A DNA stretch of 60,509 bases from a virus (Duplodnaviria > Caudoviricetes): the IMG/VR virus record IMGVR_UViG_3300012200_000002, positions 1-60,509 of that record; one strand, 5' to 3'. The notes beneath the pieces are model-generated. The model was not told the origin of the DNA and made no database searches. It saw only the letters and a program-made list of their open reading frames with translations. Position numbers and translations under genes: made by a program. This document shows, piece by piece, positions 7,216 to 28,299 of the stretch (the first letter of the stretch is position 1; the number at the start of each line of letters is the position of its first letter).

Positions 7216-7266
7216 TTGGCTGCAATGCAGTCAATGTGTATAATGACAGCGTATGAACCGCACCGA
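7216..7266 (+). promoter_or_regulatory. Leaderless promoter + 5' tag, copy 1
   Basis: TTGGCT-17-TATAAT-8nt-ATGAACCGCACCGA. Confidence 0.85.
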
Positions 7267-8257
7267 TCTCCCCCGCCGACGCATGGTCTACCTGTCGGGC
7301 GCCGTCCGCCCCGAGATCCTCGGCTTCGCCACCAACCGCTACGACCTGGGCGTGCTGCTGACCCCCAACATGGGCAACCGCCCCAAACTGCAGGGTGTGC
7401 TGTGGGCCGCCGACAACGGGCTGTTCGCGGGCCCGGACAAGCCAGTCCGCCCGTTCGGCGAGTGCGAGTTCGCGCGCTTCAAGACGCTCCTCGAGCGCGC
7501 CGGCTGGGACCTCGACGGCTGCCTGTTCGCGGTCGTCCCTGACGCGCCGTTCAACGCCCAGGGCACGCTCGAGCGCTGGGCTGAGTGGTACCCACGCTTC
7601 CGTGCTGAGCTGCCCGCCGGCGTCCCGCTGGCCTTCGTCGCCGCCGACGGCATGACCGTCGACGACGTGCCCTGGGACGAGCTCGACGTGCTGTTCCTGG
7701 GCGGCTCGGACGCCTTCAAAGAGGGCGCCGCGATCGAGCTGTGCGCCGAGGCGCGCCGCCGCGGCAAGTGGGTCCACATGGGGCGAGTAAATTCGCGACG
7801 GCGCATGGCCATCGCCTGGCGCTTCCGCTGCGACTCGGCCGACGGCACCTTCATCGCCTTTGGCCCCAACCAGAATCTGCCCAAAGTCAACGCCTGGCTC
7901 GGCGAGCTCAACGGTCAGCCGGTCACCAGGTTCGTGCGCGGCAACCTGGCCTGGACACGCGTGCCTGGGCGCGGCTGCCGCCTGGACGTCGTGGCCGCGC
8001 ACACCGTCTTCGGCGCATTCGTGGGCGGCTGGTACGCCTGCCCGCAGACACCCGGCAACCGCTTCAGCAATCGCGGCGAGCGGCGCTGCATCCACTGCGC
8101 GGCCGCGCTGGCCAGCTCGCTCAATGTCGACGGTGAGGGCGCCTGGATGATCCTGCCGTGCCCGTGCGAGCTGTGCTACGAGACCGCCTTCGGCGCCCCC
8201 GCGGCCGCGCCGCACAGGATCCTCGAACTGCCGGCCAGGCTGCCGGCAGCCGCCTGA
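7253..8257 (+). CDS. TGT/DpdA-like TIM-barrel protein with Cys-rich C-terminal extension (MNRT start)
   Basis: WAADNG, FAVVPD, LFLGGS, VHMGRVN and DSADGT motifs resemble phage tRNA-guanine transglycosylase-like proteins. Confidence 0.6.
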   Translation: MNRTDLPRRRMVYLSGAVRPEILGFATNRYDLGVLLTPNMGNRPKLQGVLWAADNGLFAGPDKPVRPFGECEFARFKTLLERAGWDLDGCLFAVVPDAPFNAQGTLERWAEWYPRFRAELPAGVPLAFVAADGMTVDDVPWDELDVLFLGGSDAFKEGAAIELCAEARRRGKWVHMGRVNSRRRMAIAWRFRCDSADGTFIAFGPNQNLPKVNAWLGELNGQPVTRFVRGNLAWTRVPGRGCRLDVVAAHTVFGAFVGGWYACPQTPGNRFSNRGERRCIHCAAALASSLNVDGEGAWMILPCPCELCYETAFGAPAAAPHRILELPARLPAAA

Positions 8258-8262
8258 TATTC

Positions 8263-8310
8263 TTGCAGTCATTGTGGACAGGAAGTATATTGTACTCATG
8301 AACCGCACTG
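8263..8310 (+). promoter_or_regulatory. Leaderless promoter + 5' tag, copy 2
   Basis: TTGCAG-17-TATATT-6nt-ATGAACCGCACTG. Confidence 0.85.
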
Positions 8311-8600
8311 CCTCCCCCGAGCTCGTCGCGCAGCTCGTCGCGGCCCTCGAAGCCGCCGACCTTTACCTGAACTCCTTCGACACCAGTGCCCCGTCGCGCA
8401 TCAAGGCCGAGACCCGCGGCGCTGTCGAGAGCGCCATCGGCGCCTACGTCGCCGCCAGCAAGCCGGCCGTCGACGCCGCGGCCGAGGCCATCAAGGCCGC
8501 CACCCTCGCGGCGTTCGCCGAGCTACCCTCGCCCGCCCACGCCGGGCTCGCCGCCGAGCGCGCCTACCTCGCCGAGACCGCGGCCAGGAACGCCCGATGA
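8298..8600 (+). CDS. Hypothetical protein (MNRT start)
   Basis: ORF begins at the tag ATG. Confidence 0.8.
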   Translation: MNRTASPELVAQLVAALEAADLYLNSFDTSAPSRIKAETRGAVESAIGAYVAASKPAVDAAAEAIKAATLAAFAELPSPAHAGLAAERAYLAETAARNAR

Positions 8601-8890
8601 ACAGCATGACCACCGCACTCCCCACCGCCCGCTTCCGGGCCATCCGCACTCGCTTCGTCGGGCCGACCAACACCCGCGGCTCGCGCGTCATCGCCGACGC
8701 CGGCGACCGTGCCAGCCGTGTGGTCCTCGACTGGGATCACGCCCTGAACTCTGAGCAGAACCACGCCACCGCCGCCGTCGCGGTCACTGAAAAGATGGGC
8801 TGGACCGGCGAGTACTACACGCCCCTGGTCGGCGGCGGATACGGGATGGACACCTACTGGGTGTTCACGTCCGAGGCGGCTCAGTCATGA
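8597..8890 (+). CDS. Phage hypothetical protein (GPTNTRGSR motif)
   Basis: ATGA coupling; motif recalled from small phage early proteins. Confidence 0.75.
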   Translation: MNSMTTALPTARFRAIRTRFVGPTNTRGSRVIADAGDRASRVVLDWDHALNSEQNHATAAVAVTEKMGWTGEYYTPLVGGGYGMDTYWVFTSEAAQS

Positions 8891-9165
8891 GCGAGCGGCG
8901 TGGCCTGGTGTTCTACACGTGCGGCCACCAGGAGCCCATCCCGTCCAAGCCGGACCGTCACGTCGACGGTCCGTGCTCGAGCTGTCGCCAGGCAGCCTCG
9001 CCGCTCGAGATCTCGCGCCGCAAGACCTTCACGCTGCAGATGCTCTACCGCGGCCTGTACACCGAGTGCCCCTCGGCGTGGGTCGCCTGCGCCGCCTGCG
9101 GCGCGCTGTACCCCGACCCGTCCGACCTCAGCGACTGCCACCGCTGTCCAGTGTCGCCATGCTAA
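8887..9165 (+). CDS. Cys-rich hypothetical protein
   Basis: ATGA coupling; several CxxC motifs. Confidence 0.65.
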   Translation: MSERRGLVFYTCGHQEPIPSKPDRHVDGPCSSCRQAASPLEISRRKTFTLQMLYRGLYTECPSAWVACAACGALYPDPSDLSDCHRCPVSPC

Positions 9166-9168
9166 TTA

Positions 9169-9216
9169 CTGGCGACAATGCTGATGTTGTGTATAATGTC
9201 GTCATGAACCGCACCG
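9169..9216 (+). promoter_or_regulatory. Leaderless promoter + 5' tag, copy 3
   Basis: CTGGCG-17-TATAAT-6nt-ATGAACCGCACCG. Confidence 0.85.
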
Positions 9217-9995
9217 CTTCCCCCGCCCGCCGCTCGCTCGCCGAGCTCAATCTGGGCTTTGTCACCGAGGGCGCCACCTCCGACTTCGACACCCGCACCG
9301 AGTACCGCGTCGGCAAATGGGGCCTGGCCTGGTCGCGCGATGGCTTCGCCAGCGGCGGCCTGGGCGGTGACCACCTGCACCTGAGCGTGGTCACCGTCAT
9401 CACCGCCATCCACCCCGACTACGACTGGCGCCCGTACTGCGCCGCCAGCGCCTACCTGGGCTACGGCAACGCCGAGCAGAAGGCGGCCCGCCGCGATCGC
9501 CAGGTCGCCGGCCACGGCAGCTACAACCACCGCTGCAACCAGCCCAAGGTCGGCGACGCGATCAGCGTCCGCCCGGTCTGCCGCGACAACAACGTGCGCG
9601 GCACCTTCGTCTTCGACGGCGCGACCGCCGACACCGACGTGGTCGACTGCATCAACTGCCGCCGCGGATTCTTCGGCGAGCAGGTCGACGTGGTCGCCGT
9701 CAAGGCCGACCGCGCCGCCGCCAGCGAGGCCAAGAAAGCCAGCCGCCCGCTGCCGACGCGCTGCTTCCACTGTGGCGACATCCGCCCGAAGACCAAAGCC
9801 ACCGCCGCCGGCGAGCAGCTCCCCTGCTCGAACTGCAAGGACAACTTCGAGACCATCTGGTGGGTCGAGACCACCGGCTACTCGTGCAGCTACTTCGCCG
9901 AGTTCCCCAAGCCCCACCTGCTCGAGCTCGGGCTGGCCGACGAGACCGCCGCCTGCGAGCGCCTCGAGCGCGTGGAAGGCAAGTGGTTCCGATGA
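9204..9995 (+). CDS. Zn-finger hypothetical protein (MNRT start)
   Basis: CINC, CFHC and CSNC motifs. Confidence 0.8.
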   Translation: MNRTASPARRSLAELNLGFVTEGATSDFDTRTEYRVGKWGLAWSRDGFASGGLGGDHLHLSVVTVITAIHPDYDWRPYCAASAYLGYGNAEQKAARRDRQVAGHGSYNHRCNQPKVGDAISVRPVCRDNNVRGTFVFDGATADTDVVDCINCRRGFFGEQVDVVAVKADRAAASEAKKASRPLPTRCFHCGDIRPKTKATAAGEQLPCSNCKDNFETIWWVETTGYSCSYFAEFPKPHLLELGLADETAACERLERVEGKWFR

Positions 9996-10447
9996 GAGGT
10001 GATCAAGAGCCAACCATGACTCCCGAGAGTCGATACGAATACAAACCCAACCTTACGCACGTGCAGACGTTGGACGAACCACTGAGGGCAGTCCGCCAGA
10101 AGCGGATCGCTGAGGTGCTCGCGGAGACAATCAAAGCACTGATCGCTAACGGATACACCACCGACGAAATCGTCTCCGCACTCGGAAGCCAAGTCGTGCG
10201 AATGCGAAGCGTTCATCGCCGAGGAGACCCAACCATGACCCCCACCCGTACACCCCTGCCCGAGGTATGGCAGGAACGCCACGAGCCGCTGCCGACGTTC
10301 CCTGAGAGCTGCCCGGTGTGTGGCGCCGCCGCGAGCGCCCACGGCAACCGCTACCACCCGGTGACGTACGCCTGTGGCGCCGCGTACACCGACAAGCCGC
10401 AGATTCAGAACCACACCGACAAGTGGTGGGGAGCGTGTCCGGGGTGA
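9992..10447 (+). CDS. Hypothetical protein with internal in-frame start at 10235
   Basis: ATGA coupling; GAGGAG SD before 10235; C-terminal CPVC. Confidence 0.6.
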   Translation: MRGDQEPTMTPESRYEYKPNLTHVQTLDEPLRAVRQKRIAEVLAETIKALIANGYTTDEIVSALGSQVVRMRSVHRRGDPTMTPTRTPLPEVWQERHEPLPTFPESCPVCGAAASAHGNRYHPVTYACGAAYTDKPQIQNHTDKWWGACPG

Positions 10448-10644
10448 GGGAGCTGTGCCAGCGTTCTGGACACGATGCCGACGAGCTGCGCTCGGGCGCG
10501 AAGTGGCTCATCCGCAAACCAGGCGAGTCGCTGCCCGACTGCCCCGAGTGCGGGCGTCGGGACCTGATTGTGACCGCGCATAAGCAGTGGCCGCGCCACT
10601 ACCGCGTGCGTCGCTGGATCCGTCCCGAAGCGAGCCAAGCATGA
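10444..10644 (+). CDS. Small Zn-binding hypothetical protein
   Basis: GTGA coupling; CPEC. Confidence 0.55.
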   Translation: MRELCQRSGHDADELRSGAKWLIRKPGESLPDCPECGRRDLIVTAHKQWPRHYRVRRWIRPEASQA

Positions 10645-10700
10645 CAGGGCGCGGTGAGCTCGAAAGCCGCGGCGACCACACCGAAAAGGAACACACGACC

Positions 10701-10991
10701 ATGACCCCCACCAATTGGATCGACATCACCGACGAGCCCGCGCCACCGTTCCCCGAGCAGAGCATCGAGCTCGACTGCCCGCCCGGTGACCCGCGGCCTG
10801 GCGACCTGATCGCTGAGGTGATCCTGGGCACCGGCCTGCCGGCGCGCCCGGCCAGGAGCAAGGTGTTCGGCAACTGGGTCTGGGACTACTCGGACATTGA
10901 CCCCGAGGCGTGGGCGGCGGCCAAGGCGATCGTCGGCCCGCGGATCGCCCGACTGCACGACCGCGGCGTGATCCGCTACGGGAGCTGGTAA
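10701..10991 (+). CDS. Hypothetical protein (alternative start 10641)
   Basis: AAGGA SD; ends IRYGSW. Confidence 0.7.
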   Translation: MTPTNWIDITDEPAPPFPEQSIELDCPPGDPRPGDLIAEVILGTGLPARPARSKVFGNWVWDYSDIDPEAWAAAKAIVGPRIARLHDRGVIRYGSW

Positions 10992-11013
10992 GCGCGCGTA
11001 AACGCACAGGACT

Positions 11014-11060
11014 GGCGCCGGCACCTCGCGAAGCGGTTCATGGGGTGCCGGCGTTTCCTT
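11014..11060 (+). terminator. Intrinsic terminator-like hairpin carrying an anti-tag sequence
   Basis: 19-position stem (11014-11032 / 11037-11055; one mismatch, four G-U), GCGG loop, running into TTTCCTT. Confidence 0.75.
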
Positions 11061-11081
11061 ACCCCGCGTGCATTGTATTTG

Positions 11082-11132
11082 TTGCAGGCATTGTTGCCAC
11101 CGTGTATATTGTAGTCATGAACCGCACCGACG
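11082..11132 (+). promoter_or_regulatory. Leaderless promoter + 5' tag, copy 4
   Basis: TTGCAG-17-TATATT-6nt-ATGAACCGCACCGACG. Confidence 0.85.
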
Positions 11133-12085
11133 TCCTCGACCTGGCCAACGGCCTGGGTCGCAAGTTCGAAACCTTCGACATCACGCCCGAGCTGACCGCC
11201 ATCGCCCGCGAGTACCTGGCCGCCTACCAGGGCAACTTCAGCTTCCTGCTCGACCTGCGCGCCAAGAGCGCCCGCGGCCTCAGCGCTGGCCAGGCCAAGG
11301 GTGTGCTGAACTGCCTGCTGGCCGACCTGCGCCGCAGCGCCCCGAAGGCTGCCGCCGCCCCGGCCGCGGTCCTCAACCTGGCCGCCATCCCCGACGGCCG
11401 CTACCGCGTGGTCGACGGCCTGGACGGCTCGAGCACGACCGCGGTGCGCCTGGTCAAGGCCACCTGGGCCACCGACAAACCAGCCGGCACGCGCTCGATC
11501 GCCATCCGCTCGGCCGAAGGCTGGACCAACCTGGGCTTCGTCAGCCCCGAGGGAGAGATCTCGCTGTGGCGCAAGGCGGAGGCCTTCAAGGCGCGCGTGC
11601 TGGCCAGCCTGGCCATCCTGGCCAAGGCCGACGACACGCTGGTGTACGGTCTGGCCTACGCCATGGAAGGCAGCGAGTGCTACATCTGTGGCCTCGAGCT
11701 CGACACGGCCGAGTCGCTCAGCGTCGGCTACGGCCCGACGTGCGCCAAGAACCGCGGCCTGCCCTGGGGCGCCAAGGCGGTCCCGGCCCAGGTCCTGCTG
11801 GCCAGGGCCCAGGCCTCGGGCGCCTCGCCGGTCGAGTTGGCGCAGGCCGAGCGCGCGGCCGCCGCGGCCAAGGCGCAGTCGCTGGTGAGCGCCGCTCGCC
11901 CGAGCCGCCGCAGCTACGACGAGATCTTCGATGTCCAGTGCCGCCAGTGCGCGCCGTTCGACTGCGACGACCCCGACCGCCACCTGGGCGTGCCGTCGCA
12001 CTACACGCCACTCAAGAATCGCGGCTGTCGGTGTGATGCGGACGTCACGGGTTTCGATTGCATGTGCTTCGAGGGTGCTGCCTGA
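11117..12085 (+). CDS. DUF6011-like Zn-finger protein (MNRT start)
   Basis: CYICGLELDTAESLSVGYGPTC motif. Confidence 0.75.
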   Translation: MNRTDVLDLANGLGRKFETFDITPELTAIAREYLAAYQGNFSFLLDLRAKSARGLSAGQAKGVLNCLLADLRRSAPKAAAAPAAVLNLAAIPDGRYRVVDGLDGSSTTAVRLVKATWATDKPAGTRSIAIRSAEGWTNLGFVSPEGEISLWRKAEAFKARVLASLAILAKADDTLVYGLAYAMEGSECYICGLELDTAESLSVGYGPTCAKNRGLPWGAKAVPAQVLLARAQASGASPVELAQAERAAAAAKAQSLVSAARPSRRSYDEIFDVQCRQCAPFDCDDPDRHLGVPSHYTPLKNRGCRCDADVTGFDCMCFEGAA

Positions 12086-12108
12086 CCGGCAGCACCAATC
12101 TATTTATT
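12074..12108 (+). terminator. Terminator-like hairpin
   Basis: GGTGCTGCC-TGACC-GGCAGCACC followed by an AT-rich tract. Confidence 0.6.
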
Positions 12109-12154
12109 GCAGCCATTGTGAGCATTGTGTATATTCTATCCATGGACCGCACCG
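12107..12154 (+). promoter_or_regulatory. Leaderless promoter + 5' tag, copy 5 (variant)
   Basis: TTGCAG-17-TATATT-6nt-ATGGACCGCACCG. Confidence 0.85.
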
Positions 12155-12570
12155 CTTTCACCGTCGTCGCCGGCTTCGAAGCCGCCGCCCGCCACGAGGC
12201 CGCCCTGGCCACCGCCGCCGCCGCCCCTAGCTTTGACCTGCCGCGCTGGCAGGAGCGCAGCGACCCGACCGTCGCCGCCGAGATCGTCGTGACCATCTAC
12301 GGCTACGGCCTGCGCTACGCCAGCGGGCTGCAGAACTTCGCCATCATCGCCAGCGCGCAGTACCTGGGCACGCTCGAGAAGGCGCTCGCGTACGCGCAGC
12401 GCTGGGCCGCGCAGAACCCCGACACCAACTTCGTGTTCATCCGCAACACCTCGCTGGCCCAGGCCGGCGCGATCGCGGCCAAGGTCGCCGAGCGCGAGGC
12501 GGGCATCGCCCGAGCTGCCGCCGCTCAGCGCGAGGCGCAAGAGCGCCTGTACGGGAAGGCCAAGTCATGA
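12142..12570 (+). CDS. Hypothetical protein (MDRT start)
   Basis: ORF begins at the tag ATG. Confidence 0.8.
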   Translation: MDRTAFTVVAGFEAAARHEAALATAAAAPSFDLPRWQERSDPTVAAEIVVTIYGYGLRYASGLQNFAIIASAQYLGTLEKALAYAQRWAAQNPDTNFVFIRNTSLAQAGAIAAKVAEREAGIARAAAAQREAQERLYGKAKS

Positions 12571-13088
12571 ACCATCCACTCGATTCGCTCACCAGCGAGC
12601 TGACCGCGTTCAATTCGTTCCGCGAGCTGGTCGACAGCGCGCCGCAGTACCGCCCGACCATCCTGCCGCGCGACAACCAGCACATCGACCTGGCCGACGG
12701 CTACGACGCCTTCCAGGCCGAGCGCGGTGATGCCCGCCGAGCCTGGCGCGGCGGCTCGGATGTCGTGCGTACGCCCGCCGTGCCCTCGGCCGACAGCCTG
12801 CTGACGGTCACCCTGGGCGGCGTGCCAGCTCGCTCAGGGCTGTACTCGGAGTGGCTGCGCGCCATCCACGAGATCAACGGCGAGTGCGGCCCGGACGACG
12901 TCAAACCCTTCGGCTCGCCAGACTCGCACGCGGGCGCCGACGGCTCGTACATCGAGGAGTACCCGGAGTACCGCGTCATCCTGCGCCACACCGAGTGGGG
13001 CAACGACCAGAACAGCGGCACCATCGAGGCCAAGACGCCCGAGGCCGCCCAGGCGCTCAAGCGCGCGCTGGCGGTGCTGCTCGCATGA
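12567..13088 (+). CDS. Hypothetical protein
   Basis: ATGA coupling; 173 aa. Confidence 0.75.
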   Translation: MNHPLDSLTSELTAFNSFRELVDSAPQYRPTILPRDNQHIDLADGYDAFQAERGDARRAWRGGSDVVRTPAVPSADSLLTVTLGGVPARSGLYSEWLRAIHEINGECGPDDVKPFGSPDSHAGADGSYIEEYPEYRVILRHTEWGNDQNSGTIEAKTPEAAQALKRALAVLLA

Positions 13089-13363
13089 GCTACGTCTCGC
13101 TCGTCTTCGAGTGCGCCAACTGCGGGCACATGGACATGGCCAACCCCGAGCTGGTCCTGTCCATCCCCGCGCGGCGCGAGGGCGGCCGCTTCGTGCCCGA
13201 CCCGAACGGCAAGCGCGAGCCGATCTGCCGCTTCTGCGCGGTGCAGGCCCTCGAGCGCATCCGCTCGGGCGACCCGATGCTCACCTCGGTGTCGCCAGTG
13301 CTGCGCGAGCCGGACTACTTCGACCGCGCGTACGGCGAACCCGCCGCGGACTTCGAGCCATGA
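13085..13363 (+). CDS. Zn-binding hypothetical protein
   Basis: ATGA coupling; CANC and CRFC. Confidence 0.7.
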   Translation: MSYVSLVFECANCGHMDMANPELVLSIPARREGGRFVPDPNGKREPICRFCAVQALERIRSGDPMLTSVSPVLREPDYFDRAYGEPAADFEP

Positions 13364-13572
13364 ATGTGTGCGCCTACTGGCACGACCACCCCGAGGGGGA
13401 TCCGAGCTTCGACGACTGCCAGGCCGCCGCGGCGGCCGCCCGCCGTGCGCTGCCGAACTGCCTGGTCTGCCGCCAGCCGGTCTCGGCCGCCGACGACTGC
13501 GTCGCAGCCAACACCTGGGTGGCCCACCGCGAGTGCGTCTACCGCCGCGCCGCGCGGCGTGTGCGCAAGTAA
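13360..13572 (+). CDS. Small Cys/His hypothetical protein
   Basis: ATGA coupling; CLVC...HREC. Confidence 0.6.
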   Translation: MNVCAYWHDHPEGDPSFDDCQAAAAAARRALPNCLVCRQPVSAADDCVAANTWVAHRECVYRRAARRVRK

Positions 13573-13583
13573 AGGAGATCCCG

Positions 13584-13808
13584 ATGTCCTACGACCCTTA
13601 CGCTTCTGAGTCCAGCGGCGACCACGAGACCACCACCGATCAGGTGTACCTGCGCCACATCCGCCAGGAGCTGCAGCACGTCACTGCGGCGCTCGGCCCG
13701 CTGAGCGAGCTCGTGCTCGAGTTGCGCACGCTCAACACCAACCTGAACAGCATCGACTCGCGCCTGGACTACCTGGCCCAGCTCGTGGGCGCCGGCGGCT
13801 GGCGCTGA
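13584..13808 (+). CDS. Small coiled-coil protein
   Basis: AAGGAG SD; heptad leucines. Confidence 0.7.
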   Translation: MSYDPYASESSGDHETTTDQVYLRHIRQELQHVTAALGPLSELVLELRTLNTNLNSIDSRLDYLAQLVGAGGWR

Positions 13809-13811
13809 GTC

Positions 13812-13872
13812 GCAAGTAATACTTGCTCGGCATTGGCTGCATTGAGTATATTGTCGGTATGAACCGCACCGA
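13812..13872 (+). promoter_or_regulatory. Operator + leaderless promoter + 5' tag, copy 6
   Basis: GCAAG-TAATA-CTTGC overlaps TTGCTC-18-TATATT-6nt-ATGAACCGCACCGA. Confidence 0.85.
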
Positions 13873-14170
13873 GCTGGTCAGGACCGACCTGATCTACACC
13901 GAGACCGTCTACACCCTGTGGACCAAACTGCCGTGGCAGCGCAAGACGCGCGCCTTCGCCGCCTACTCGGTCATGTACCACCCGAGCGGCCAGGTCACTG
14001 TCGACGTGTCCTACTTCGACTACAAGACCGGCAAGCGCAAGGTGAGCTTCATGACCAAGCCCGCGGAGATCGCCGCCAAGCTCATCGAGTGGCGGGCCCA
14101 GGACAACCACGGCGTCAGCTACAGCCACCAGGAGCACTACGGCTATGAGCTGCGCGAGGTGTCGGCGTGA
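13859..14170 (+). CDS. Hypothetical protein (MNRT start)
   Basis: ORF begins at the tag ATG. Confidence 0.8.
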   Translation: MNRTELVRTDLIYTETVYTLWTKLPWQRKTRAFAAYSVMYHPSGQVTVDVSYFDYKTGKRKVSFMTKPAEIAAKLIEWRAQDNHGVSYSHQEHYGYELREVSA

Positions 14171-14547
14171 CCGACGAGCGCGCGGCCGAGCTGCGCCAGC
14201 ACCGCGCTGAGCTGGCCCAGCGCTTCGCTTCGAACGCGCGCGACACCAAGGCGCAGGCCCTCGCCGACGGCGCCACGAGCTGGATCCCGTTCACCTCGAA
14301 GGACGGCCGCTACAAGGGCTTCTGTGTCCCCTCGAGCCAGGACGGCAAGTACTACACCGTCACCATCGACGACTGCGACTGCCCCGACGCGCAGCGCCAC
14401 ACCACGACTTGCAAGCACCGCCGCGCCCTGCGCCTGGTGCTCGAGCGCCAGGGCATCCTGGCGGAATTCATGCCGGCGGCGGTCACCGAGGGTGACGCCG
14501 CGTTCTGGGCCCGCCTTGGCGTGCTGCCCACCACCCGAGAAGACTAG
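14167..14547 (+). CDS. SWIM zinc-finger protein
   Basis: YTVT..CDCPD......CKH motif. Confidence 0.8.
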   Translation: MTDERAAELRQHRAELAQRFASNARDTKAQALADGATSWIPFTSKDGRYKGFCVPSSQDGKYYTVTIDDCDCPDAQRHTTTCKHRRALRLVLERQGILAEFMPAAVTEGDAAFWARLGVLPTTRED

Positions 14548-14566
14548 GAGCTTGAGGATCCCCGTC

Positions 14567-14833
14567 ATGAACACCCCCAACATCGTCGTCCTGACCGAAG
14601 TCGGCGGCCTCCCGCTGGGCCCCGGCCACGACCACGCGGTCTACATCAATCCGGCCCACATCGTCGAGTGGACCAGCGCCAAGGCGCCCAAGGGCGCGAC
14701 CTCGATCAAGCTGGTCGGCATCGAGTACGAGCTGTTCGTGCGCGAGTCGCCGCGCGAGGTCTTCCACCTGGTCACCGGCGACGAGCTGCCCGAGCTCGAG
14801 GCCGAACCGAACGGCCACATCCGGGCCCTGTGA
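14567..14833 (+). CDS. FlbD-like small beta protein
   Basis: VYINPAHI...TSIKL...VRESPREV pattern; GAGG SD. Confidence 0.55.
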   Translation: MNTPNIVVLTEVGGLPLGPGHDHAVYINPAHIVEWTSAKAPKGATSIKLVGIEYELFVRESPREVFHLVTGDELPELEAEPNGHIRAL

Positions 14834-15006
14834 ACTACGCCATCGTCATCGTGCAGCGCTACGCCATCCTTCGGGATGGCCAGCGCGTGGCCAACACCCC
14901 CGACTACCCGAGCGCGGATGACGCACGCCGCGCCATCGTCAAGCTCAGGCGCCAGGACGCCGTGGCCGCGGCCAGGCAGGCGCGCGAACAGGAGCAACAG
15001 CCATGA
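14830..15006 (+). CDS. Hypothetical protein
   Basis: Coupled to neighbours on both sides. Confidence 0.55.
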   Translation: MNYAIVIVQRYAILRDGQRVANTPDYPSADDARRAIVKLRRQDAVAAARQAREQEQQP

Positions 15007-20350: not shown

Positions 20351-20356
20351 GGCGCC

Positions 20357-20955: not shown

Positions 20956-20965
20956 GGCTCTCCTT

Positions 20966-23900
20966 TTATGCAGCGTCCGCGTAGCACGGGATCTTGCGGT
21001 TGGTCCCGTTCACGCTGATGCGGATGTACTCGGTTGGCGTGGCCGGAGGCGCCGCCGCTCCGCCCGCTGCACCCACGGTCGTGGTCAGCGTGTTGTCCAC
21101 GCGCATGAACACTCCGGTCGAGGTGTTTGAGATCCAGATAGGCGAGTTCGTTGCGCCTGGTGCAGCAGCGCCTGCGATCCGGAGGGGAACGTTGTTCGTT
21201 GTCGCACCGGACTGAGCGTCGAGATAGATGCCGTAGGCGTTGGTCCGTGTCCCGCTGCTATTGAAGATCCGCATACCGTAGAAATCGGTAATGGTGGTCC
21301 CCGAGACAGACGCGAGGGACATCATGATGCCGTAGTACGAAGGCAGCGTGTATGAGCCGCTGAGCGAGTATCCAATGTAAAGTGCTCGAGCGGTCGTGGT
21401 GGCTCCGGTGAACGTCGGCTGGAGGTTCAGGCCGGTTGCACTGACAGCCGCGTTCGTTGACGCCACGAACAAGTTGTCGCCGGCTGTCGGGACGGTGCCA
21501 ACTCCAACATTGCCGTCCAGGCGCGAGGTGCCCAGGTTGTACAGACCGATGTTGGTCGTAACCGCGCCGGACTGAGCCAAGATGTAGACGCCATAGGCGT
21601 TGGTGATCCCGGCTTTGCCCTGGTTGGCAACGTAGATGCCGTACAGCGTGGTGATCGCGCTGCCAGCGCCCACCACTGGTGCGACCACCTGTAGCGCATA
21701 CCCGCTGACCATGGTGAACGCAGCAGCGGCTGTCGTCAGGCCAATCATCACGTCAGAGCCGCTCGTGGTTGCCGTTGCGCTGAAGGTGCCCAGCACATTC
21801 AGGATGCTCTGGGTCGCACCGCTCAGGCTTGTCGAGGCTGGATTGACCACGAGGCCAATGCTTGTCGAGGATGCCTGGCCGATGCCGACGTTACCGTTGA
21901 CACTCAGGTTGCGACCCAGGAACAGATCGCGCGGCCGGTTGGCTCCACTGGCGCCAATGTCGTAGGTGTTGTCGGTTACCGCCTTGAAGTTCCCGGTGCC
22001 ACCTTCGATCTTCCAGAAGTCGGAACCACCGAGTTGGAACGTGATCTCCGAGCCGCCCAATCCGAGTGCTCGCAACGTGCCCGTTCCTGCGTTGACAGCC
22101 CGGACATACACCTTGTTCGCCTGCCACTCGACGTTTAGTCGTTCGTAGTTGCTGGCGTCCGTGTACGTGTTGTAGAGCAGGAACTGCTGCGCGTTGACAC
22201 CGTTGCGAACATCAACGACGTTGCTGCCCCACGGCTGAAGCGACAGGGGCACGCCAGCGCTGTTCGCGTAGAGCGGCGAATCGACGTAGCCGAGCGTTGA
22301 GAAGTTGCCACCCAGGTACAGATTGCGCGGTCTATTCGCTCCACTCGCGCCGATGTCGTAGGTGTTGTCGGAGTTGGAGACGAGATGGCCCCCGCTCGTG
22401 AGCTGCCAGGCCGAGGTTGTGCCATTGACCACAAACTGGATGCCGTTGCCCACACCCGAGGTGAGGGCGCCCGCGTAGACGGTGCCGCCCACATAGACGT
22501 CTCTCGGGCGAGTCGCGCCGGCCGCGCCGATGTCGTAGGTGTTATCGGGTGAGAACGTGAGCGTCTGGCTCAGCGGGAGGGTTAGCCCACCACCTCCACC
22601 TCCCAGCGCCACCTCCACACCCGAGTTGCTCAGCATGTACAGGTTGTTGTCAGCTTTGGAGTACAGCCGCACGCTGCCGCTGGCAGGGTTCGCTGGCTTC
22701 ACGATCGCCGAGAACTGGGCGTAGCTGGCGAGCTGGGCAATGCCGGCCAGGAACAGGTTCCTGGGTCGATTCGCGCCGGATTGCCCAAGGTCGTAGGAGT
22801 TGTCGGCGAAGGCGATCAAGTGGCCGCTCGAGTTGACCTGAAAGCGGGTCGTGCTGACGGTTGACAGGCTGAGCGTGGTGCTGGCGTTGACCAGCGGCGT
22901 GACGACCGATGTCGCGGCGTAGACGGTGCGCGGGCGGAGTGTGGCCGACGTCGCGCCGATGTCGTAGGTGTTGTCAGGGCTGAAGGTCAGGTTTTGCGCG
23001 AGTGGCAAACTGAGCCCGCCACCGCCGCCGGCCGGTGTAACCCAGGCCGTGTCGTAGTCGGTTGCGGTGTTTTTCTGGAGCACCTGGCCGGTGGTGCCGC
23101 CGGTGGGGACGGCGCCAGGTCCGATGAACGCGCCGGAGACATAGATCCTGCGCACTCGCAGGGGTCCGCCACCAGGCGGGTAGCTGGCGTCGCCGCCAAT
23201 GTCCACCGCGCCACCCGTTGCGCCGTCGTATGCGGGTATCAGGTTGCCCGTGGTATCGATCGACCAACGCAACTGGCCACTGCCCTCGCTCGTGCCGCCG
23301 GTCCAGAAGCGAATGCTCTTGGATGTGCCGCCCGACCGCGAGTCACCGGCCCTGATGCCAGAACTGCCGTACTGCAGCCACTGGGCGCTGTTTTTGTCCA
23401 TGCCGCTCCAGCACGTCAGAGTCGTCTCGTTGTAGGAGACGTCGTTGGGGATGATCCACACCTTGGCCGGTCGGTACTCGCCACCAGCGCCGTCCTTGGC
23501 CGCGAGCAGCAGCACCGTCTGGTCGTTGTTGTCGCTGGTCAGCGAGATCTGGAAACCGGTGGTGTAGCCGTTGTTCGCGTCGGGACCGACCAGCAGGAGG
23601 TGTGGTGGCGGGGGCCACGTACCAACGGTGGTGCCAAGTGTGGTCAGACCCTGCACGTTCAAGTTGCCACCCAGGTACAGGTTGCGGGGGCGGTTGGAGC
23701 CGGCGGCACCGATGTCGTAGGCATTGTCCGTATCGGCCAGCAGTGAACCTCCGTACATCAAGCCCGCGCCGATGAGACGGATCTGACCAGCACCAGTCTT
23801 ATAAAGCTGTTCTGCGCTGGAGGTGGAGCCGAAGCGATAGCTAGTACCAGCGGTCACGTCGCCGGGAGTAATCAATGCTCCTGCGACCACGCTGCTGGTC

Positions 23901-24394
23901 GCATAGACACTGCGCGGACGGCTCGCTCCGGACGCACCGATGTCATAGCTATTGTCTGGCGAGAAGAGCAGGTTGCCGCTGAGCGTGCCACCCGTTAGTT
24001 GGAGATAACCACCGCCGGCCAGGGGTGCGTAACGAGCGTCGCCCTGAGCCTGGGTGATCTTCGTGTCGGCGTATTGTTTCGTGGCTGCTTGCAGGTTCGT
24101 AGACGGGTCAGCCGACAACGTCAGCAATCCGCTGAGCGTGCCGCCGGCGAGTTGCAGGTAGCGTGTGTCGGCCTGGGTCTGGGTCAGGTAGCCGCCGCCG
24201 ACGACGGGCGCATAGCGTGTGTCGCCCTCCGGCTGGGTCAGGTACTGCGGGAAAGGGTCCGACGTCTTCAGGAACGCCTCGACCGCATTGACCGCCGCGT
24301 TGGCCTTGTTGTGCAGGTCCGGGTGGGTGTCCTGCGAGACCGTGCCGTTGGCGCTCGAGGTTGGCAGGTTGTCAGGTGTGGTGGGGAACGTCAT
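20966..24394 (-). CDS. Tail fibre / receptor-binding protein
   Basis: 1142 aa; YLQLxGGTLSG and AATKQYAD fibre motifs; seven DNxYD[IL]G...RPR repeats; ends RKIPCY. Confidence 0.85.
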   Translation of the reverse strand: MTFPTTPDNLPTSSANGTVSQDTHPDLHNKANAAVNAVEAFLKTSDPFPQYLTQPEGDTRYAPVVGGGYLTQTQADTRYLQLAGGTLSGLLTLSADPSTNLQAATKQYADTKITQAQGDARYAPLAGGGYLQLTGGTLSGNLLFSPDNSYDIGASGASRPRSVYATSSVVAGALITPGDVTAGTSYRFGSTSSAEQLYKTGAGQIRLIGAGLMYGGSLLADTDNAYDIGAAGSNRPRNLYLGGNLNVQGLTTLGTTVGTWPPPPHLLLVGPDANNGYTTGFQISLTSDNNDQTVLLLAAKDGAGGEYRPAKVWIIPNDVSYNETTLTCWSGMDKNSAQWLQYGSSGIRAGDSRSGGTSKSIRFWTGGTSEGSGQLRWSIDTTGNLIPAYDGATGGAVDIGGDASYPPGGGPLRVRRIYVSGAFIGPGAVPTGGTTGQVLQKNTATDYDTAWVTPAGGGGGLSLPLAQNLTFSPDNTYDIGATSATLRPRTVYAATSVVTPLVNASTTLSLSTVSTTRFQVNSSGHLIAFADNSYDLGQSGANRPRNLFLAGIAQLASYAQFSAIVKPANPASGSVRLYSKADNNLYMLSNSGVEVALGGGGGGLTLPLSQTLTFSPDNTYDIGAAGATRPRDVYVGGTVYAGALTSGVGNGIQFVVNGTTSAWQLTSGGHLVSNSDNTYDIGASGANRPRNLYLGGNFSTLGYVDSPLYANSAGVPLSLQPWGSNVVDVRNGVNAQQFLLYNTYTDASNYERLNVEWQANKVYVRAVNAGTGTLRALGLGGSEITFQLGGSDFWKIEGGTGNFKAVTDNTYDIGASGANRPRDLFLGRNLSVNGNVGIGQASSTSIGLVVNPASTSLSGATQSILNVLGTFSATATTSGSDVMIGLTTAAAAFTMVSGYALQVVAPVVGAGSAITTLYGIYVANQGKAGITNAYGVYILAQSGAVTTNIGLYNLGTSRLDGNVGVGTVPTAGDNLFVASTNAAVSATGLNLQPTFTGATTTARALYIGYSLSGSYTLPSYYGIMMSLASVSGTTITDFYGMRIFNSSGTRTNAYGIYLDAQSGATTNNVPLRIAGAAAPGATNSPIWISNTSTGVFMRVDNTLTTTVGAAGGAAAPPATPTEYIRISVNGTNRKIPCYADAA

Positions 24395-24398
24395 GCGC

Positions 24399-24635
24399 TC
24401 AGCTCAGGTTGGCCACAGCTTGACCTGTCCGCGGCGGCGGTGTGATCGTGGCCACGGCGCTACCTGGCGGCGGGCCGCCTTGATCCCAGCTCGCAGCGCC
24501 CACCAGGGACGCCGAGGTGGGGATCAGGGCGCCGCCCAGCATGTAGCTGCCCAGCGTCCAGTCGCCCAGGTGGCCAGCTACCCACAGCCAGCCGCCTATG
24601 GCGCTGCCGGACTGTGGCGGGCTCGAGCCCGCCAC
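24399..24635 (-). CDS. Small hypothetical virion-module protein
   Basis: Fills the gap in the co-directional operon. Confidence 0.45.
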   Translation of the reverse strand: MAGSSPPQSGSAIGGWLWVAGHLGDWTLGSYMLGGALIPTSASLVGAASWDQGGPPPGSAVATITPPPRTGQAVANLS

Positions 24636-24656
24636 GCCGCAGTCGGTCAGGGTCCC

Positions 24657-25268: not shown

Positions 25269-25279
25269 GGTTTCCTCGC

Positions 25280-25981
25280 TCACAGCCCGCGGTGGTCGTA
25301 CTGGTAGCCAAGGGGCTGCGGGCTGGCCGCCCCTCGCTCGGGCCGCAGCGGGCCCTCGCCGGTCTGTCCGAATCGGCCGCCGCTGATCGACTGCGCACCG
25401 GCCAGGAACTGGCCGCGCTGTGGGTCGTCGATCGCCTCAATCTGCTGAGCTGGACCCTGGCGCTGGTGTTGGTTCCACGTCACCTGCACCGCGATCGACT
25501 GCGGCACGCTACAGATCTGGCCGACGAAGATCGGGAACTCGAGGCCATTGACCATGAACACGCGCGGCGGGAACTTGCCAGTGACCTTGTGGATCTTCAT
25601 CTCGTCGGCGTCCGGCTGGATGTACACCGGCTCGCGCACCTCGGTCCGCCAGGCCTCGAGCGTCGCGTCGCGCTGCTCTTTGTCGCGGCGCACCTCCTCG
25701 GCCAGGTTGCCGCGCCGATCGCTCTGCTGGTCGGTCCGCTGCTGCCCCATCAGGTCGAGGATCTGGCGCTGCTGCTGAGCGAGCTGCTCCTGCATTGTGG
25801 CCATCAATCGGAACATGTCCTGGGGCGTGATCTCGCCCACGTTGGGCGCCGCGTGAATGATCGGCTCGAGCGCGTGCAGCGCCTCCTCGGGATCCTTGTC
25901 GATGCGGTCCATCGCCGCCTGGGTGCCGTCAACCGCGCGCTCGAGCAGCGCCGCGGCCGGCCCGTCTGGTCTGGCGTTCAT
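25280..25981 (-). CDS. Capsid-adjacent protein
   Basis: ATGA coupling to the capsid gene; VFMVNG..F.I..G....VP motif recalled from genes following N4-gp56-type capsids. Confidence 0.65.
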   Translation of the reverse strand: MNARPDGPAAALLERAVDGTQAAMDRIDKDPEEALHALEPIIHAAPNVGEITPQDMFRLMATMQEQLAQQQRQILDLMGQQRTDQQSDRRGNLAEEVRRDKEQRDATLEAWRTEVREPVYIQPDADEMKIHKVTGKFPPRVFMVNGLEFPIFVGQICSVPQSIAVQVTWNQHQRQGPAQQIEAIDDPQRGQFLAGAQSISGGRFGQTGEGPLRPERGAASPQPLGYQYDHRGL

Positions 25982-26946
25982 CCAGCGACGGCCGTTTCCA
26001 CGCGCAGGATGCGCGCGTTGTCGAGGACCTTGGCCACGTACGCGACCTTCCAACCCGCCACGCCGTACTGTTGCAGGGGGTCAATCTTCGATGGCGTGTT
26101 GGCCGGCACGACCATGATGTCGACACCGGTCTCGTTGGTCTGCGGGTTCAACCCACCGACGGTCATCGACTCGAGGTCGGTCGTGCCGAAGGCGTTCGGG
26201 CCCCAGATGAGCGCGGCGTGGACGTCGATGCCCGCGGCGCCGCCAGCGGTGAAGATCGGGTTTTCAGTGGTGGTGTCGAAGTCCACGCCCTCGACCTCGC
26301 CCAGGGTGCCCGACAGGAACACACTCGGCGCCGAGTAGCGCATGATGTCCAGCCAGCCACCCGCGGCCGCGTCGGTCTTCAGGTCATACTTTTGCGATGG
26401 CGTGCACGAGCCGTGGTAGCGCCCGTCCGGGAAGCGCGGCACCTTGGTCTTCTCGAGGGTCCTGACGGCCTTGCGCACCTCAGCGGTGATGAAGTTCATG
26501 CCCGCGGCGACGGTCACGCGACTGGTAGCGGTGGAGGCGTACTGGACGCTCGAGCCGGCGCCCAGCTCGGTACTGGTGAGCGCGTGCACGCTCAGCCCGC
26601 ACTGCTCGCCCTCGACGTCCATGACGTTGCTCATGGCGGGGTCGATGCCCGCGCGGATCAACAAGTCGGAGATCTTCTGGAACGCGCCGTACTGGGCCAG
26701 GCTGGCGGTCACCTGGGTGATGGTCAGCGAGCCCTCGGTGGGCGGCACGCCCTCAGTCAGGGCCGAGGTGGCCGCCGGCAGCGCGCCCCACTTGCGCCAC
26801 TGGATCGTGGTACCCGTGTTGGAGCCGACGGTCTCCTGCATGCCATCCTTGAGCAGCGGCAGGTACGGGATGAGGCGCTTGAGGGTCTTGGCGATGTAAT
26901 AGGTACGCTGCTCAGCCGTCAGGCTGGCGTAGGTCTGCACGACCAT
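25978..26946 (-). CDS. Major capsid protein, N4-gp56 family
   Basis: GTTIQWRKW, LTEGVPP, LAQYG...ISD, DPLQQ...AGWK motifs. Confidence 0.9.
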   Translation of the reverse strand: MVVQTYASLTAEQRTYYIAKTLKRLIPYLPLLKDGMQETVGSNTGTTIQWRKWGALPAATSALTEGVPPTEGSLTITQVTASLAQYGAFQKISDLLIRAGIDPAMSNVMDVEGEQCGLSVHALTSTELGAGSSVQYASTATSRVTVAAGMNFITAEVRKAVRTLEKTKVPRFPDGRYHGSCTPSQKYDLKTDAAAGGWLDIMRYSAPSVFLSGTLGEVEGVDFDTTTENPIFTAGGAAGIDVHAALIWGPNAFGTTDLESMTVGGLNPQTNETGVDIMVVPANTPSKIDPLQQYGVAGWKVAYVAKVLDNARILRVETAVAG

Positions 26947-26968
26947 AGTGGGAGCTCCAGGGCAGGGA

Positions 26969-27955
26969 TTAGGACGAGCTGAGGTCGCGCCCGAGCCATT
27001 TGCCCTGGGCCACTTCACGCTCGAATTCCGGTTTGATCTGGCCGCTGGAATCGAAGGCGAGGTCCTGCCACCCGCGGCCCGACGGCACGGCGGGCCCGTT
27101 GGGGCCGGCTGGCTGCGGCGAGCGCACGAGCTGGTTGCGCTTCAGGCTCTTGTTTTCAGCCTGGAGACGAGCGATGGTCTGCTGCGCCTGGGCGCTGGCT
27201 CTGGCCTCGCCGGCGGCGAGGGCCATGGCATGCACGGCACGGATGGCAGAGATCGCGTCGGGAGCAGTGTTGAGCTGGGCCATGTGTTCAGTGCCGATGC
27301 CCTCGAGCTCGCCGAGGCCCTGCCAGTTGACGCCGTACTGGCGCTGCACTTGCTTTTCGGCCTCGCGATAGATCGGGCCGGCCAGCTCGTGCCACTGGCG
27401 CATCTCGACCGCGGTCTGGCGCTCTTCGGCCGTGGCGGTCCCGTTGAGCACCCGCTCGGCGAGCTGCTCGTACACGAACTTGCCTGAAGAGTCGCGTTCG
27501 TAGCCCGAGACTTTGCCGAGTTGGGTCAGGATGTGGCGCTGAGAGGCATTGACCTGCTCCAGCTCGCGCTGGGCAGTCTGCATGATGGTCCGAGCCTCGT
27601 CCCGCTCGCGCGTACGAACCTCGAGATCAGCGGCGAAACGCGCCGCATCACGGCGCGAGAACTTCGGTGGTTCGGTGGTCTGGGCCTCCGGCGCCACTGC
27701 GGCGGGTGCTGGCTCAGGTTGCTCCGCGGGCTGCTCGCCCTGTTCCTCGAGCTCGTCGTCGTCCTCTTGACCTTCGTCGTCTGTCTCGACTTCTTGCCAG
27801 TCTGGTGCGCCCGGCGGGGTTTCAGCCTCGAGGTCGCGTTGGGCGTTCGCGGCGATCGCCGCGTGCTCCATAGCTTCGTCGAGAGCTGCCAGCGTCGGGT
27901 TAGCGTCAGGTGGTGCCGGTGAGACAGCGGCGGATGCGGGCGACTGGGGCTGCAT
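26969..27955 (-). CDS. Putative scaffolding protein
   Basis: Acidic N-terminus and coiled coil; directly upstream of the capsid gene. Confidence 0.7.
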   Translation of the reverse strand: MQPQSPASAAVSPAPPDANPTLAALDEAMEHAAIAANAQRDLEAETPPGAPDWQEVETDDEGQEDDDELEEQGEQPAEQPEPAPAAVAPEAQTTEPPKFSRRDAARFAADLEVRTRERDEARTIMQTAQRELEQVNASQRHILTQLGKVSGYERDSSGKFVYEQLAERVLNGTATAEERQTAVEMRQWHELAGPIYREAEKQVQRQYGVNWQGLGELEGIGTEHMAQLNTAPDAISAIRAVHAMALAAGEARASAQAQQTIARLQAENKSLKRNQLVRSPQPAGPNGPAVPSGRGWQDLAFDSSGQIKPEFEREVAQGKWLGRDLSSS

Positions 27956-28028
27956 ACCGAAGGACTGGCCTCAGTATGCTCACCGCCGGCACCGCGGCGG
28001 ACCCGCCTGGGCGGGTGGTATTTAGTTA

Positions 28029-28078
28029 TTGGCTGCATTGTTGGCAATGCTGTATAACTACGAGCATGAACCGCACCG
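28029..28078 (+). promoter_or_regulatory. Leaderless promoter + 5' tag, copy 7
   Basis: TTGGCT-18-TATAAC-7nt-ATGAACCGCACCG. Confidence 0.8.
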
Positions 28079-28299
28079 CCCCTTCCACTGCCAACCGCTA
28101 CGGCGCCCACCAGGGCGTGACCTACCGCTACAGCGTCCGCGCCGTGCTCTCGCCGATGGCCTTCCGCTCGCGCGCCTACCTGCCCAGCGGCGCGGCCGTG
28201 TCCGGCTTCGGCAACACCCGCGACGCCGCCGTCGTCGACATGCAGAGTCGCGTCAACCTCGTCATCGACGACCGCCTGGCGCAGGGATGGCAGCCATGA
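28066..28299 (+). CDS. Hypothetical protein (MNRT start)
   Basis: ORF begins at the tag ATG. Confidence 0.8.
   Translation: MNRTAPSTANRYGAHQGVTYRYSVRAVLSPMAFRSRAYLPSGAAVSGFGNTRDAAVVDMQSRVNLVIDDRLAQGWQP

Follow-up and report, generated by a model that had tools for sequence, protein, structure and literature searches.

The closest described parallel to the element reported here is the start-associated sequence (SAS) of the Cluster K mycobacteriophages, a 13-bp asymmetric repeat that marks numerous non-structural genes, unrelated to one another, where their translation begins (Pope et al. 2011, PMC3203893). That report places the repeats in one orientation, except that each K1 genome has one inverted site, away from gene starts, and describes them as rare in host genomes. 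Their function was still called unknown in papers of 2024 and 2025, and a term search of the 2025 survey of 188 genomes found "antisense," "opposite orientation" and "complementary strand" nowhere. The stoperators of the Cluster A L5 gp71 type are likewise asymmetric and 13 bp long; they occur both at the early promoter and at other places, and their orientation follows transcription (PMC9283540). Here we describe a 13-nt tag, ATGAACCGCACCG, that forms the first codons of seven leaderless genes in the virus record IMGVR_UViG_3300012200_000002, and an exact inverted copy of it that is predicted to be displayed by an RNA hairpin. The whole record, 60,509 bp with a G+C content of 0.63–0.71, is referred to below as the window. 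An earlier reading of the same DNA, made from the letters alone (the original prediction), had noticed the seven starts and proposed that they carry a common address label.

Allowing up to one mismatch, ATGAACCGCACCG was found eight times in the window, compared with a mean of 0.09 in shuffled sequence, and none of 100 shuffles reached eight. Seven of the matches are on the plus strand, and each begins with the ATG of a gene. Five of these are exact (7253, 9204, 11117, 13859, and 28066), the copy at 8298 carries the synonymous change C12T (ACT), and the copy at 12142 carries A4G, which replaces Asn by Asp, making two changes in 91 positions. The five identical copies and the two that are one base off were thus counted correctly in the original prediction. 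The eighth match, absent from the list in the original prediction, is exact and lies on the minus strand (51780..51768); about 0.002 further exact copies would be expected by chance, as estimated from base composition.

The seven tagged proteins are otherwise unrelated, as had been claimed. Pairwise comparison gave no alignment at E<0.04, and what aligned best was the common N-terminus itself, which reads M-(N/D)-R-T in every protein and continues with A, D, or E. At the DNA level one correction is needed: copies 1, 2, and 3 (7253, 8298, and 9204) retain a TCCCCCG similarity to about +22, and in copies 1 and 3 the likeness continues to about +30, interrupted by substitutions and an indel. The tag is confined to the first gene of each unit and is absent from the downstream plus-strand genes, which start, for example, with ATGAACAGCATG (8597) or ATGAACCATCCA (12567). 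It is also absent from the divergent leaderless gene (6955..7212, minus strand; ATG at 7176), which starts with ATGAATGACACG 6 nt after the TATCAT of its own promoter, TTGTCA-18-TATCAT. Both observations agree with what had been noted before.

Each plus-strand tag closes a promoter cassette. The seven sites align over about 50 bp and share an A/T-rich patch, TTG, one or two CAWTG motifs, GTG, a −10 element, a partly conserved GTNNNC, and the tag. Cassette 1 (7216..7265) consists of the −35-like hexamer TTGGCT (7216–7221), the −10 TATAAT (7239–7244), 8 nt, and the tag (7253–7265), and it heads a DpdA-like gene (7253–8257; phrog_15826). Cassette 2 (8263..8310) has TTGCAG, a 17-nt spacer, TATATT, 6 nt, and the tag variant ATGAACCGCACTG, followed by a gene for 100 aa (8298–8600) with no Pfam or PHROG match. 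In cassette 3 (9169..9216), CTGGCG, a 17-nt spacer, TATAAT, and 6 nt precede the exact tag of a 263-aa gene (9204–9995). Cassette 4 (11082..11129) combines TTGCAG, a 17-nt spacer, TATATT, 6 nt, and the exact tag in front of a 322-aa gene (11117–12085) whose match to DUF6011 falls just below the Pfam cut-off. The same hexamers, spacer, and distance recur in cassette 5 (12107..12154), here with the tag ATGGACCGCACCG and a 142-aa gene (12142–12570). Cassette 6 (13823..13871) has TTGCTC, an 18-nt spacer, TATATT, 6 nt, and the exact tag of a 103-aa gene (13859–14170), and cassette 7 (28029..28078) has TTGGCT, an 18-nt spacer, TATAAC, 7 nt, and the exact tag of a 77-aa gene (28066–28299); all seven are on the plus strand.

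The −10 hexamer is TATAAT in two copies, TATATT in four, and TATAAC in one, and it ends 8, 6, 6, 6, 6, 6, and 7 nt before the ATG in the order of the cassettes, which leaves no room for a Shine-Dalgarno (SD) sequence in any of the seven. The arrangement used to recognize leaderless sigma-70/SigA-type starts (TANNNT 6–8 nt before ATG) was accordingly found in 7/7, and the geometry given in the original prediction holds throughout. The −35-like hexamers, set 17 nt (five copies) or 18 nt (two copies) further upstream, begin with TTG in six of seven cases, also as predicted, although the resemblance is thin: most agree with TTGACA at 3/6 positions, mainly the TTG. Because of this, a strict sigma-70 scan of 7000–14500 called only one of the six cassettes located there, together with the divergent promoter of gene 7176. 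The bases between the −10 and the ATG had been described as unconserved; they are variable in general, but in four of the seven copies they are partly alike (gtactc, gtcgtc, gtagtc, and gtcggt). A weight matrix of the promoter without the tag, built from those same seven sites, gave them 34–57 bits and everything else in the window at most 16.5, and therefore no eighth promoter of the cassette type; promoter type and tag always occur together. Hairpins precede several cassettes, and the one at 12074–12096, just upstream of cassette 5, was called as a terminator, so that the region can be described as a row of terminator-promoter-leaderless-gene units.

Within the cassettes, CAWTG occurs once or twice per spacer (e.g., 12113–12129 and 28035–28052), with copies about 10–11 bp apart and sometimes arranged as an inverted repeat, GCATTG..CAATGC; it is a candidate operator distinct from the tag. 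In the relative L069, TATAGACCATTGGTCTATA lies over the −10 element. Over cassettes 5 and 4 the strict scan also called promoter-like sites that face the other way (12133–12161 and 11072–11100, both minus). These consist of TAGAAT and TACAAT, a reverse reading of the TATATT region, and may be chance or antisense starts.

Read on the plus strand, the eighth copy is CGGTGCGGTTCAT (51768..51780), the exact reverse complement of the tag, hereafter the anti-tag; the tag itself reads on the minus strand. It lies 40 nt after the stop of the HTH_17 gene (51368..51727, plus strand), which encodes a 119-aa excisionase/MerR-like protein with a helix-turn-helix (HTH) domain (PF12728, E 5e-9) and is the only plus-strand gene in a minus-strand block of about 29 kb (31.7–60.4 kb). 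The eighth copy is non-coding, as the open reading frame (ORF) that overlaps it has a third-position G+C content of 0.69 compared with 0.85–0.9 in most genes, and on the minus strand it runs into a stop after 7 codons. Its flanks resemble the cassette flanks no more than shuffled sequence does (p 0.59–0.99 upstream and 0.23–0.90 downstream), and the identity therefore runs from the A of ATG to +13. Compared with copy 4 (11117), it extends to 16 contiguous nt (to +16). An origin of the eighth copy as a decayed cassette was considered and rejected, the flanks being no closer than shuffles. The copy has no cassette-type promoter.

In plus-strand RNA the anti-tag is predicted to be presented by a hairpin (hairpin 1, 51755..51803) of 19 pairs, six of them G-U, in which it makes up the upper stem and the apical loop; positions 51773–51780, the complement of mRNA bases 1–8, are mostly unpaired. 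The fold of plus-strand RNA from 51728–51850 has a z score of −4.1, with 0/200 shuffles as good, and that of the minus strand −1.4. Hairpin 1 is specific to the plus strand, since its six G-U pairs cannot form on the other. By prediction, opening the complement of mRNA bases 1–8 would cost 0.54 kcal/mol and opening the whole anti-tag 6.7 kcal/mol, the tagged 5' ends would open at 0.4–3.8 kcal/mol compared with 4.05 ± 3.3 kcal/mol for 24 other gene starts, and the 13-bp duplex of tag and anti-tag would be worth −23.2 kcal/mol. The complementarity is 13/13 to five of the targets and 12/13 to the other two, and 16 contiguous nucleotides match the 11117 mRNA. Two features expected of an antisense regulator are thus seen, namely contiguous complementarity to the initiation region and, by prediction only, an unpaired seed in a stable structured RNA. 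A second, G+C-rich stem-loop (hairpin 2, 51807..51847) follows between the convergent units and overlaps the stop of the minus-strand gene 51826–52053; no T run follows it.

The HTH_17 gene and the terminase operon point away from each other. Upstream of that operon (ATG 51235) and of the head-gene operon (ATG 27955) we observed the two copies of a second promoter-like class, at about 51250–51306 and at 27965–28007, both on the minus strand. They consist of the inverted repeat CCGCCC..GGCGGG, TCC, 19–20 nt, and CATACTG(A)GGCCAG, with the repeat centered near −42 relative to a start after CATACT, and may be activator-dependent late promoters. Since the HTH_17 gene diverges from a terminase operon that shares this motif with the head operon, the anti-tag may be made together with the late genes, a timing that we infer from the layout.

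The Cluster K phages appear to have the same layout. Phage Anaya carries 16 forward SAS and one inverted copy, in the gp96–gp97 gap. Plus-strand RNA of the inverted site folds with a z score of −3.99 into a hairpin (34850–34902 of the stretch L144, about 59849–59901 of the record, near the right genome end) in which the core CCUCCUAUCC forms the 10-nt apical loop, reading CCUCCUAUC. The inverted-SAS region is conserved in 135 Mycobacterium phage records. Among 12 sampled Cluster K phages (L144–L155), both stems were found in 12/12, with G-U pairs and one compensatory pair, and the apical loop is the anti-SAS in 9/12. The hairpin of Adephagia occupies the gap that separates genes 92 and 93, from which late transcription is reported to appear to start; the right-arm genes are the early lytic genes according to the same study (PMC11373665), and the SAS lie in that arm (PMC3203893). 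Two unrelated phage groups thus show one arrangement, in which many starts bear a label and a single inverted label is set in the loop of a predicted hairpin. This raises the odds that the tag is read as RNA, as an analogy and not as a test.

Before asking how the tag might be read, the evidence that it has been kept should be considered. Across the seven copies, divergence has affected the spacers, the 6–8 nt that precede the ATG, and the stretch from +14 to +30, while the tag was held. The unit that was duplicated extended beyond the tag, so decay has touched the adjoining sequence but spared the tag itself. In the DpdA-like protein, ten extra residues, MNRTDLPRRR (7253–7285; the tag and 6 codons), stand before Met11, which corresponds to the start of the homolog in L010, so that the cassette appears to have been grafted onto a pre-existing DpdA-like gene. 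The metagenome contig L076 (1,076 bp), 81.1% identical over 461 nt to the window at 13089–13871, has the cassette and the tag at 13/13, here heading a different 53-aa ORF. Its homolog of gene 13859 lies downstream of this extra 53-aa gene, is led by an SD sequence, and starts with GTGAGCCGCACCG; in this internal position the bases of the tag have changed about as fast as the background. It is also precisely at the tag that one entire gene sets the two sequences apart, which suggests gene gain or loss by recombination at this point.

Codon usage needs to be taken into account here. AAC (84%), CGC (67–82%), and ACC (56–72%) are the preferred codons, and a test of the synonymous sites gave P of about 0.0025 with genome-wide usage and about 0.035 with early-gene usage, for copies that are not independent. 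With a codon bias that favors AAC, CGC, and ACC, synonymous invariance is weak evidence against a peptide signal, too weak to choose between RNA and peptide. By its differential conservation, the tag is under constraint at the nucleotide level.

Related phages that share a homolog of gene 11117 have repeated cassettes of their own. G001 and G002 contain 12 copies of GTCACCGAAAnnnTTGACA-N17-TATATT (L107–L118), six of the leaderless type, five with a conserved SD leader, and one with another leader. The leaderless-type starts are ATGAATCTG, ATGACCAGC, ATGCAATTC, ATGAATCAA, ATGCAACAA, and ATGAACACC, which have only ATG(A/C)A in common, and L069 and L106 have similar cassettes that likewise lack a shared tag. 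A shared coding tag is therefore unnecessary for such a layout, and the claim that it is no generic requirement of leaderless genes is upheld. The conserved SD-bearing leader TCGGCCGATGGAGGGCC that follows five of the G001/G002 cassettes is itself a repeat of the SAS kind, here in phages that are uncultured; the G001/G002 leader TCGGCCGATGGAGGGC has no inverted copy.

The tag also does not appear to be a common bacterial start. The exact pattern of cassette and tag was found in no other viral contig and in 25 metagenome stretches, of which one, L076, is a true relative. The looser pattern of a −10, 6–8 nt, and the tag gave 24 stretches among the genomes of 185,579 species, with one match each, none with the cassette and none from a relative. 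Among 301 genomes of the phylum of G003, four had this pattern, with at most one match each (a control pattern gave two); G003 had been picked for having a match, one matching genome (G088) is unpublished, and the phylum may not be that of the host. With this limit on the sample, the expectation that such starts are uncommon in bacteria was borne out.

Pairing of tag bases 6–12 (CCGCACC) with GGUGCGG near the 3' end of a Jiangella 16S ribosomal RNA (rRNA; L143; −15.1 kcal/mol) was tried as a further candidate and rejected as weak, because shuffled tags did equally well in 1.6% of cases over the last 60 nt but in 67% over the whole rRNA. The GGUGCGG stretch lies just 5' of the anti-SD sequence and is presumably the 3' strand of helix 45, paired in the ribosome.

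We favor, with a confidence that falls somewhat short of even, a reading in which the tag is an RNA address bound by the anti-tag. Host RNA polymerase would start transcription at the A of the ATG, so that the tag would be +1 to +13, the first bases of the seven-fold cassette to be transcribed and translated. The cassette would have spread by duplication, carrying up to about 30 nt of 5' coding sequence, of which only the first 13 nt were then held. The seven leaderless mRNAs would share the 5' terminus AUGAACCGCACCG, the target of a single phage antisense element, CGGUGCGGUUCAU, exposed at a hairpin apex in the 3' untranslated region of the HTH_17 gene. Antisense RNAs classically make contact with a target through a loop that presents the complement. 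In this case a kissing contact would form between the loop CGGUUCAU and the free 5' end AUGAACCG and would grow into a duplex of 13 bp. With the 5' AUG hidden in this way, translation of the first gene would be blocked in all seven units together, because a leaderless mRNA can be translated only if its 5' AUG is accessible; how accessible the start codon is helps to determine leaderless translation (PMC8459731). The duplex might also be exposed to double-strand RNases. The outcome would be a global shut-off of one gene class. Such a scheme would explain the strict conservation of the tag, since one antisense element serves many targets and any single change loses the match. What had been proposed as an address label on presumably early mRNAs, read as RNA, as DNA, or as peptide, thus stands as a selectively kept tag; the RNA reading has gained most, because the exact complement sits in the loop of a plus-strand hairpin, and the peptide reading has gained nothing.

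Several observations weigh against pairing between tag and anti-tag. All the sequencing runs that contain this DNA are DNA runs, with no RNA run among them. There were no promoter-like sites in 50900–52700, and none was recognizable directly before the anti-tag; ahead of the HTH_17 gene the one −10-like sequence, CACCAT, is weak and lies 6 nt from the ATG. No T run comes after either hairpin, and no plus-strand terminator was called there. A terminator hairpin is, in any case, expected at the end of a convergent gene pair, and the presence of the tag in its loop could be a coincidence, estimated at about 1 in 15–30. Protein searches of viral contigs found no relative with the anti-tag locus, neither for the HTH_17 protein nor for the 386-aa protein of 52602–53762, and the anti-tag RNA matched no Rfam family. 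In three of the 12 sampled Cluster K phages (Ekdilam, Amgine, and SirPhilip) the anti-SAS loop is degenerate or lost while 11–12 exact SAS are kept, so the anti-label is not indispensable there. Finally, some known operators that proteins bind asymmetrically are 13 bp long as well.

This last point leads to the alternative that survives best, which we nonetheless regard as unlikely: the tag as a DNA operator, an asymmetric 13-mer bound by a phage DNA-binding protein, as a monomer or in one orientation, in the manner of the L5 type. A protein at +1 to +13 would block initiation or escape at seven early promoters, and the eighth site, co-oriented with minus-strand transcription, would stop read-through from the minus-strand operon upstream of it into the terminase operon. 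The tag indeed resembles the L5-type stoperators in being 13 bp, non-palindromic, and oriented with local transcription in 8/8 copies, the eighth lying just after the minus-strand gene 51826–52053, and such a correlation is described as a hallmark of stoperators (PMC9283540). Identity confined to the 13-mer would suit a protein site as well as an RNA site, and small HTH genes are present, namely HTH_26/HTH_3 (2911–3336 and 5223–5729), HTH_17 itself, and GerE (59322–59606). However, none of these proteins is tied to the site, whereas the stoperators have a known cognate repressor; and where the stoperators number more than 20 and lie mostly in short intergenic gaps, the tag has eight sites, seven of them in first codons and one intergenic. 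The spacers, moreover, already hold CAWTG as a separate candidate operator. An operator gives no reason why the eighth site should be at the apex of a hairpin that forms on the plus strand only, with the complement of the mRNA 5' end unpaired; no hairpin context is described for stoperators.

It is also improbable, and ranks after the operator, that the tag is simply optimal in cis, as the best initial transcribed sequence (for start choice and escape), as an unstructured A/C-rich end for 70S loading, or as both. There would then be no reader in trans, and the eighth copy would be unrelated to the function. Phage promoter families are often conserved for a few bases past +1, and about 13 nt is the length of the RNA at promoter escape, both of which fit this explanation, as do the more open predicted 5' ends and the preference for ATGA(A/C) at the leaderless starts of the related phages and of the tag-less gene 7176. 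Many sequences would suffice for such a role, however, and near-perfect identity over 13 nt is not expected; the six leaderless-type cassettes of G001/G002 do without any shared block, and an exact inverted eighth copy is left unexplained (about 0.002 expected, or 0.09 for ≤1 mismatch).

Quite improbable is hitch-hiking or recombination, in which the tag would be the edge of a duplicated cassette of about 60 bp, serving as homology for module exchange and evened out by gene conversion. The homology past the tag in three copies, the addition of tag and 6 codons before the native Met of the DpdA-like gene, the whole-gene difference between L076 and the window exactly at the tag, and a RecT-like gene at 3357–4766 all speak for it. 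Yet conversion or recent duplication would have kept the neighboring bases, which vary most, and the eighth copy has none of the cassette flanks. A peptide signal, with MNRT(A/D/E) recognized on the proteins for targeting, stability, or processing, has very little chance of being right even though all seven proteins share these residues, since 4–5 residues are very short and lack a hydrophobic signal-peptide region behind them, base 13 (G) never varies even though three different residues are encoded by codon 5, one of the two tag changes is non-synonymous (N to D), the eighth copy has a stop after 7 codons and no promoter, and a complementary copy in an RNA hairpin is not predicted by it.

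As for the phage itself, the two ends of the record overlap by about 120 nt, and identical DNA is present in four soil metagenome runs from three studies. Over 7000–14500 the four DNA runs showed no alternative letters and a few single-contig indels (9073, 9482–9485, and 10367–10377), none of them inside a tag; because the runs agree at all tags, there is no population variation with which to test the element. A blastn search with 7000–14900 matched three phage records, each over ≤3% of the query, and the large terminase subunit (TerL) and the major head protein are at most 33% and 31% identical, respectively, to those of named phages. The phage thus appears, by these comparisons, to have no close named relative. 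With TerL as the query, five viral contigs were found at 51–55% identity, none encoding the tagged proteins or the HTH_17 protein, and genome contigs gave no match. The RecT-like protein matches 77 phage records, of which 58 are of Gordonia, 14 of Mycobacterium, and 1 of Mycolicibacterium; together with the high G+C content and the leaderless starts, this hints, weakly, at an actinobacterial host.

Most of the large ORFs have no match in Pfam or PHROG, including those for 1,142 aa (20966–24394, minus) and 677 aa (17115–19148, minus), and the 2,989-aa ORF at 31717–40686 (minus), scanned against Pfam only, had no match there. No relative was found for the ORF at 13111–13572, whose frame may be wrong, and Rfam and tRNA scans of the window returned nothing. 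The virion module forms two leftward blocks, and the seventh tagged unit lies between them. Within a leftward block of small genes, 57453–57746 (minus) encodes a 97-aa protein with an Acb2/Tad1 hairpin domain (E 1.8e-19), likely an anti-CBASS/anti-Thoeris sponge, and the gene adjoins that of the GerE/LuxR-type HTH protein (59322–59606). At 858–946 (plus), in a region without strong coding signal, TTTCACCCCTG is repeated four times at spacings of 22, 21, and 45 bp and could be a set of iterons or a protein-binding array.

Among known elements the tag may be compared first with the SAS. Both are 13-bp asymmetric repeats shared by unrelated genes in one orientation, with a lone inverted copy that lies in the apical loop of a predicted, strand-specific hairpin. 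The SAS, however, lies 3–7 bp upstream of the ATG, in the 5' leader, and includes the SD core AGGAG (consensus GGGATAGGAGCCC), and its genes are often internal to operons, whereas the tag opens with the ATG itself and is part of the coding sequence, belongs to an mRNA without SD whose 5' end it is predicted to form, and marks only the first gene of a unit. The two sequences are unrelated: the SAS consensus itself, with ≤2 mismatches, matched the window once compared with 1.44 expected. The tag is therefore not an SAS, as the original prediction had argued from its position within the coding sequence. Searches of papers found no described equivalent of a shared coding tag, again as had been stated, in a literature from which the supplementary site tables of Cluster K are to be excepted.

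Leaderless mRNAs with a −10 element 6–8 nt before the ATG are familiar from lambda cI transcribed from PRM and from many actinobacterial genes. The tagged units share with them this geometry, the absence of an SD sequence, and the need for an accessible 5' AUG, a determinant taken from one study (PMC8459731); for other leaderless genes, no shared coding tag has been described. Stem-loop phage RNAs that pair with an initiation region and prevent translation are themselves well known: P22 sar acts on ant, P1/P7 c4 on ant/icd, and lambda OOP belongs to the same group. In its proposed mode of action the anti-tag would resemble sar and c4 most. Each of these RNAs has one mRNA as its target, is usually encoded opposite or beside it, and covers the SD sequence; the anti-tag, unlike them, would be one element acting in trans on seven leaderless mRNAs through a shared 5' coding tag. 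The shut-off of many early mRNAs by one trans factor through a short common motif has a counterpart in the RegA repressor and the RegB endoribonuclease of T4. There the readers are proteins, the motifs short or degenerate (GGAG; A/U-rich near the AUG), and the mRNAs leadered, while the tag is 13 nt and exact and its candidate reader is an RNA.

Should the pairing prove real, it would be a compact RNA switch-off of several operons and a new type of target in antisense regulation. It would be the first case in which antisense control targets the 5'-terminal AUG of mRNAs that have no leader, and the first in which one antisense element serves seven separate operons, and it could provide a portable "off handle" of 13 nt with which to build synthetic circuits wherever the host translates leaderless mRNAs. 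Even if a protein turns out to be the reader, the locus shows that selection acts at the nucleotide level on the opening four codons of genes that are otherwise unrelated, which gene callers and codon-usage analyses do not expect. More generally, and here we are doubtful enough to offer it as a possibility, phages may label a temporal class of messages at the translation start and silence the class with a single anti-label in a hairpin loop. If so, the same logic would explain the Cluster K SAS, the function of which has been a puzzle since 2011: late transcripts would turn off the SAS-labelled early genes. For the SAS this is a testable hypothesis, as the phages, the host M. smegmatis, its genetics, and RNA-seq data exist.

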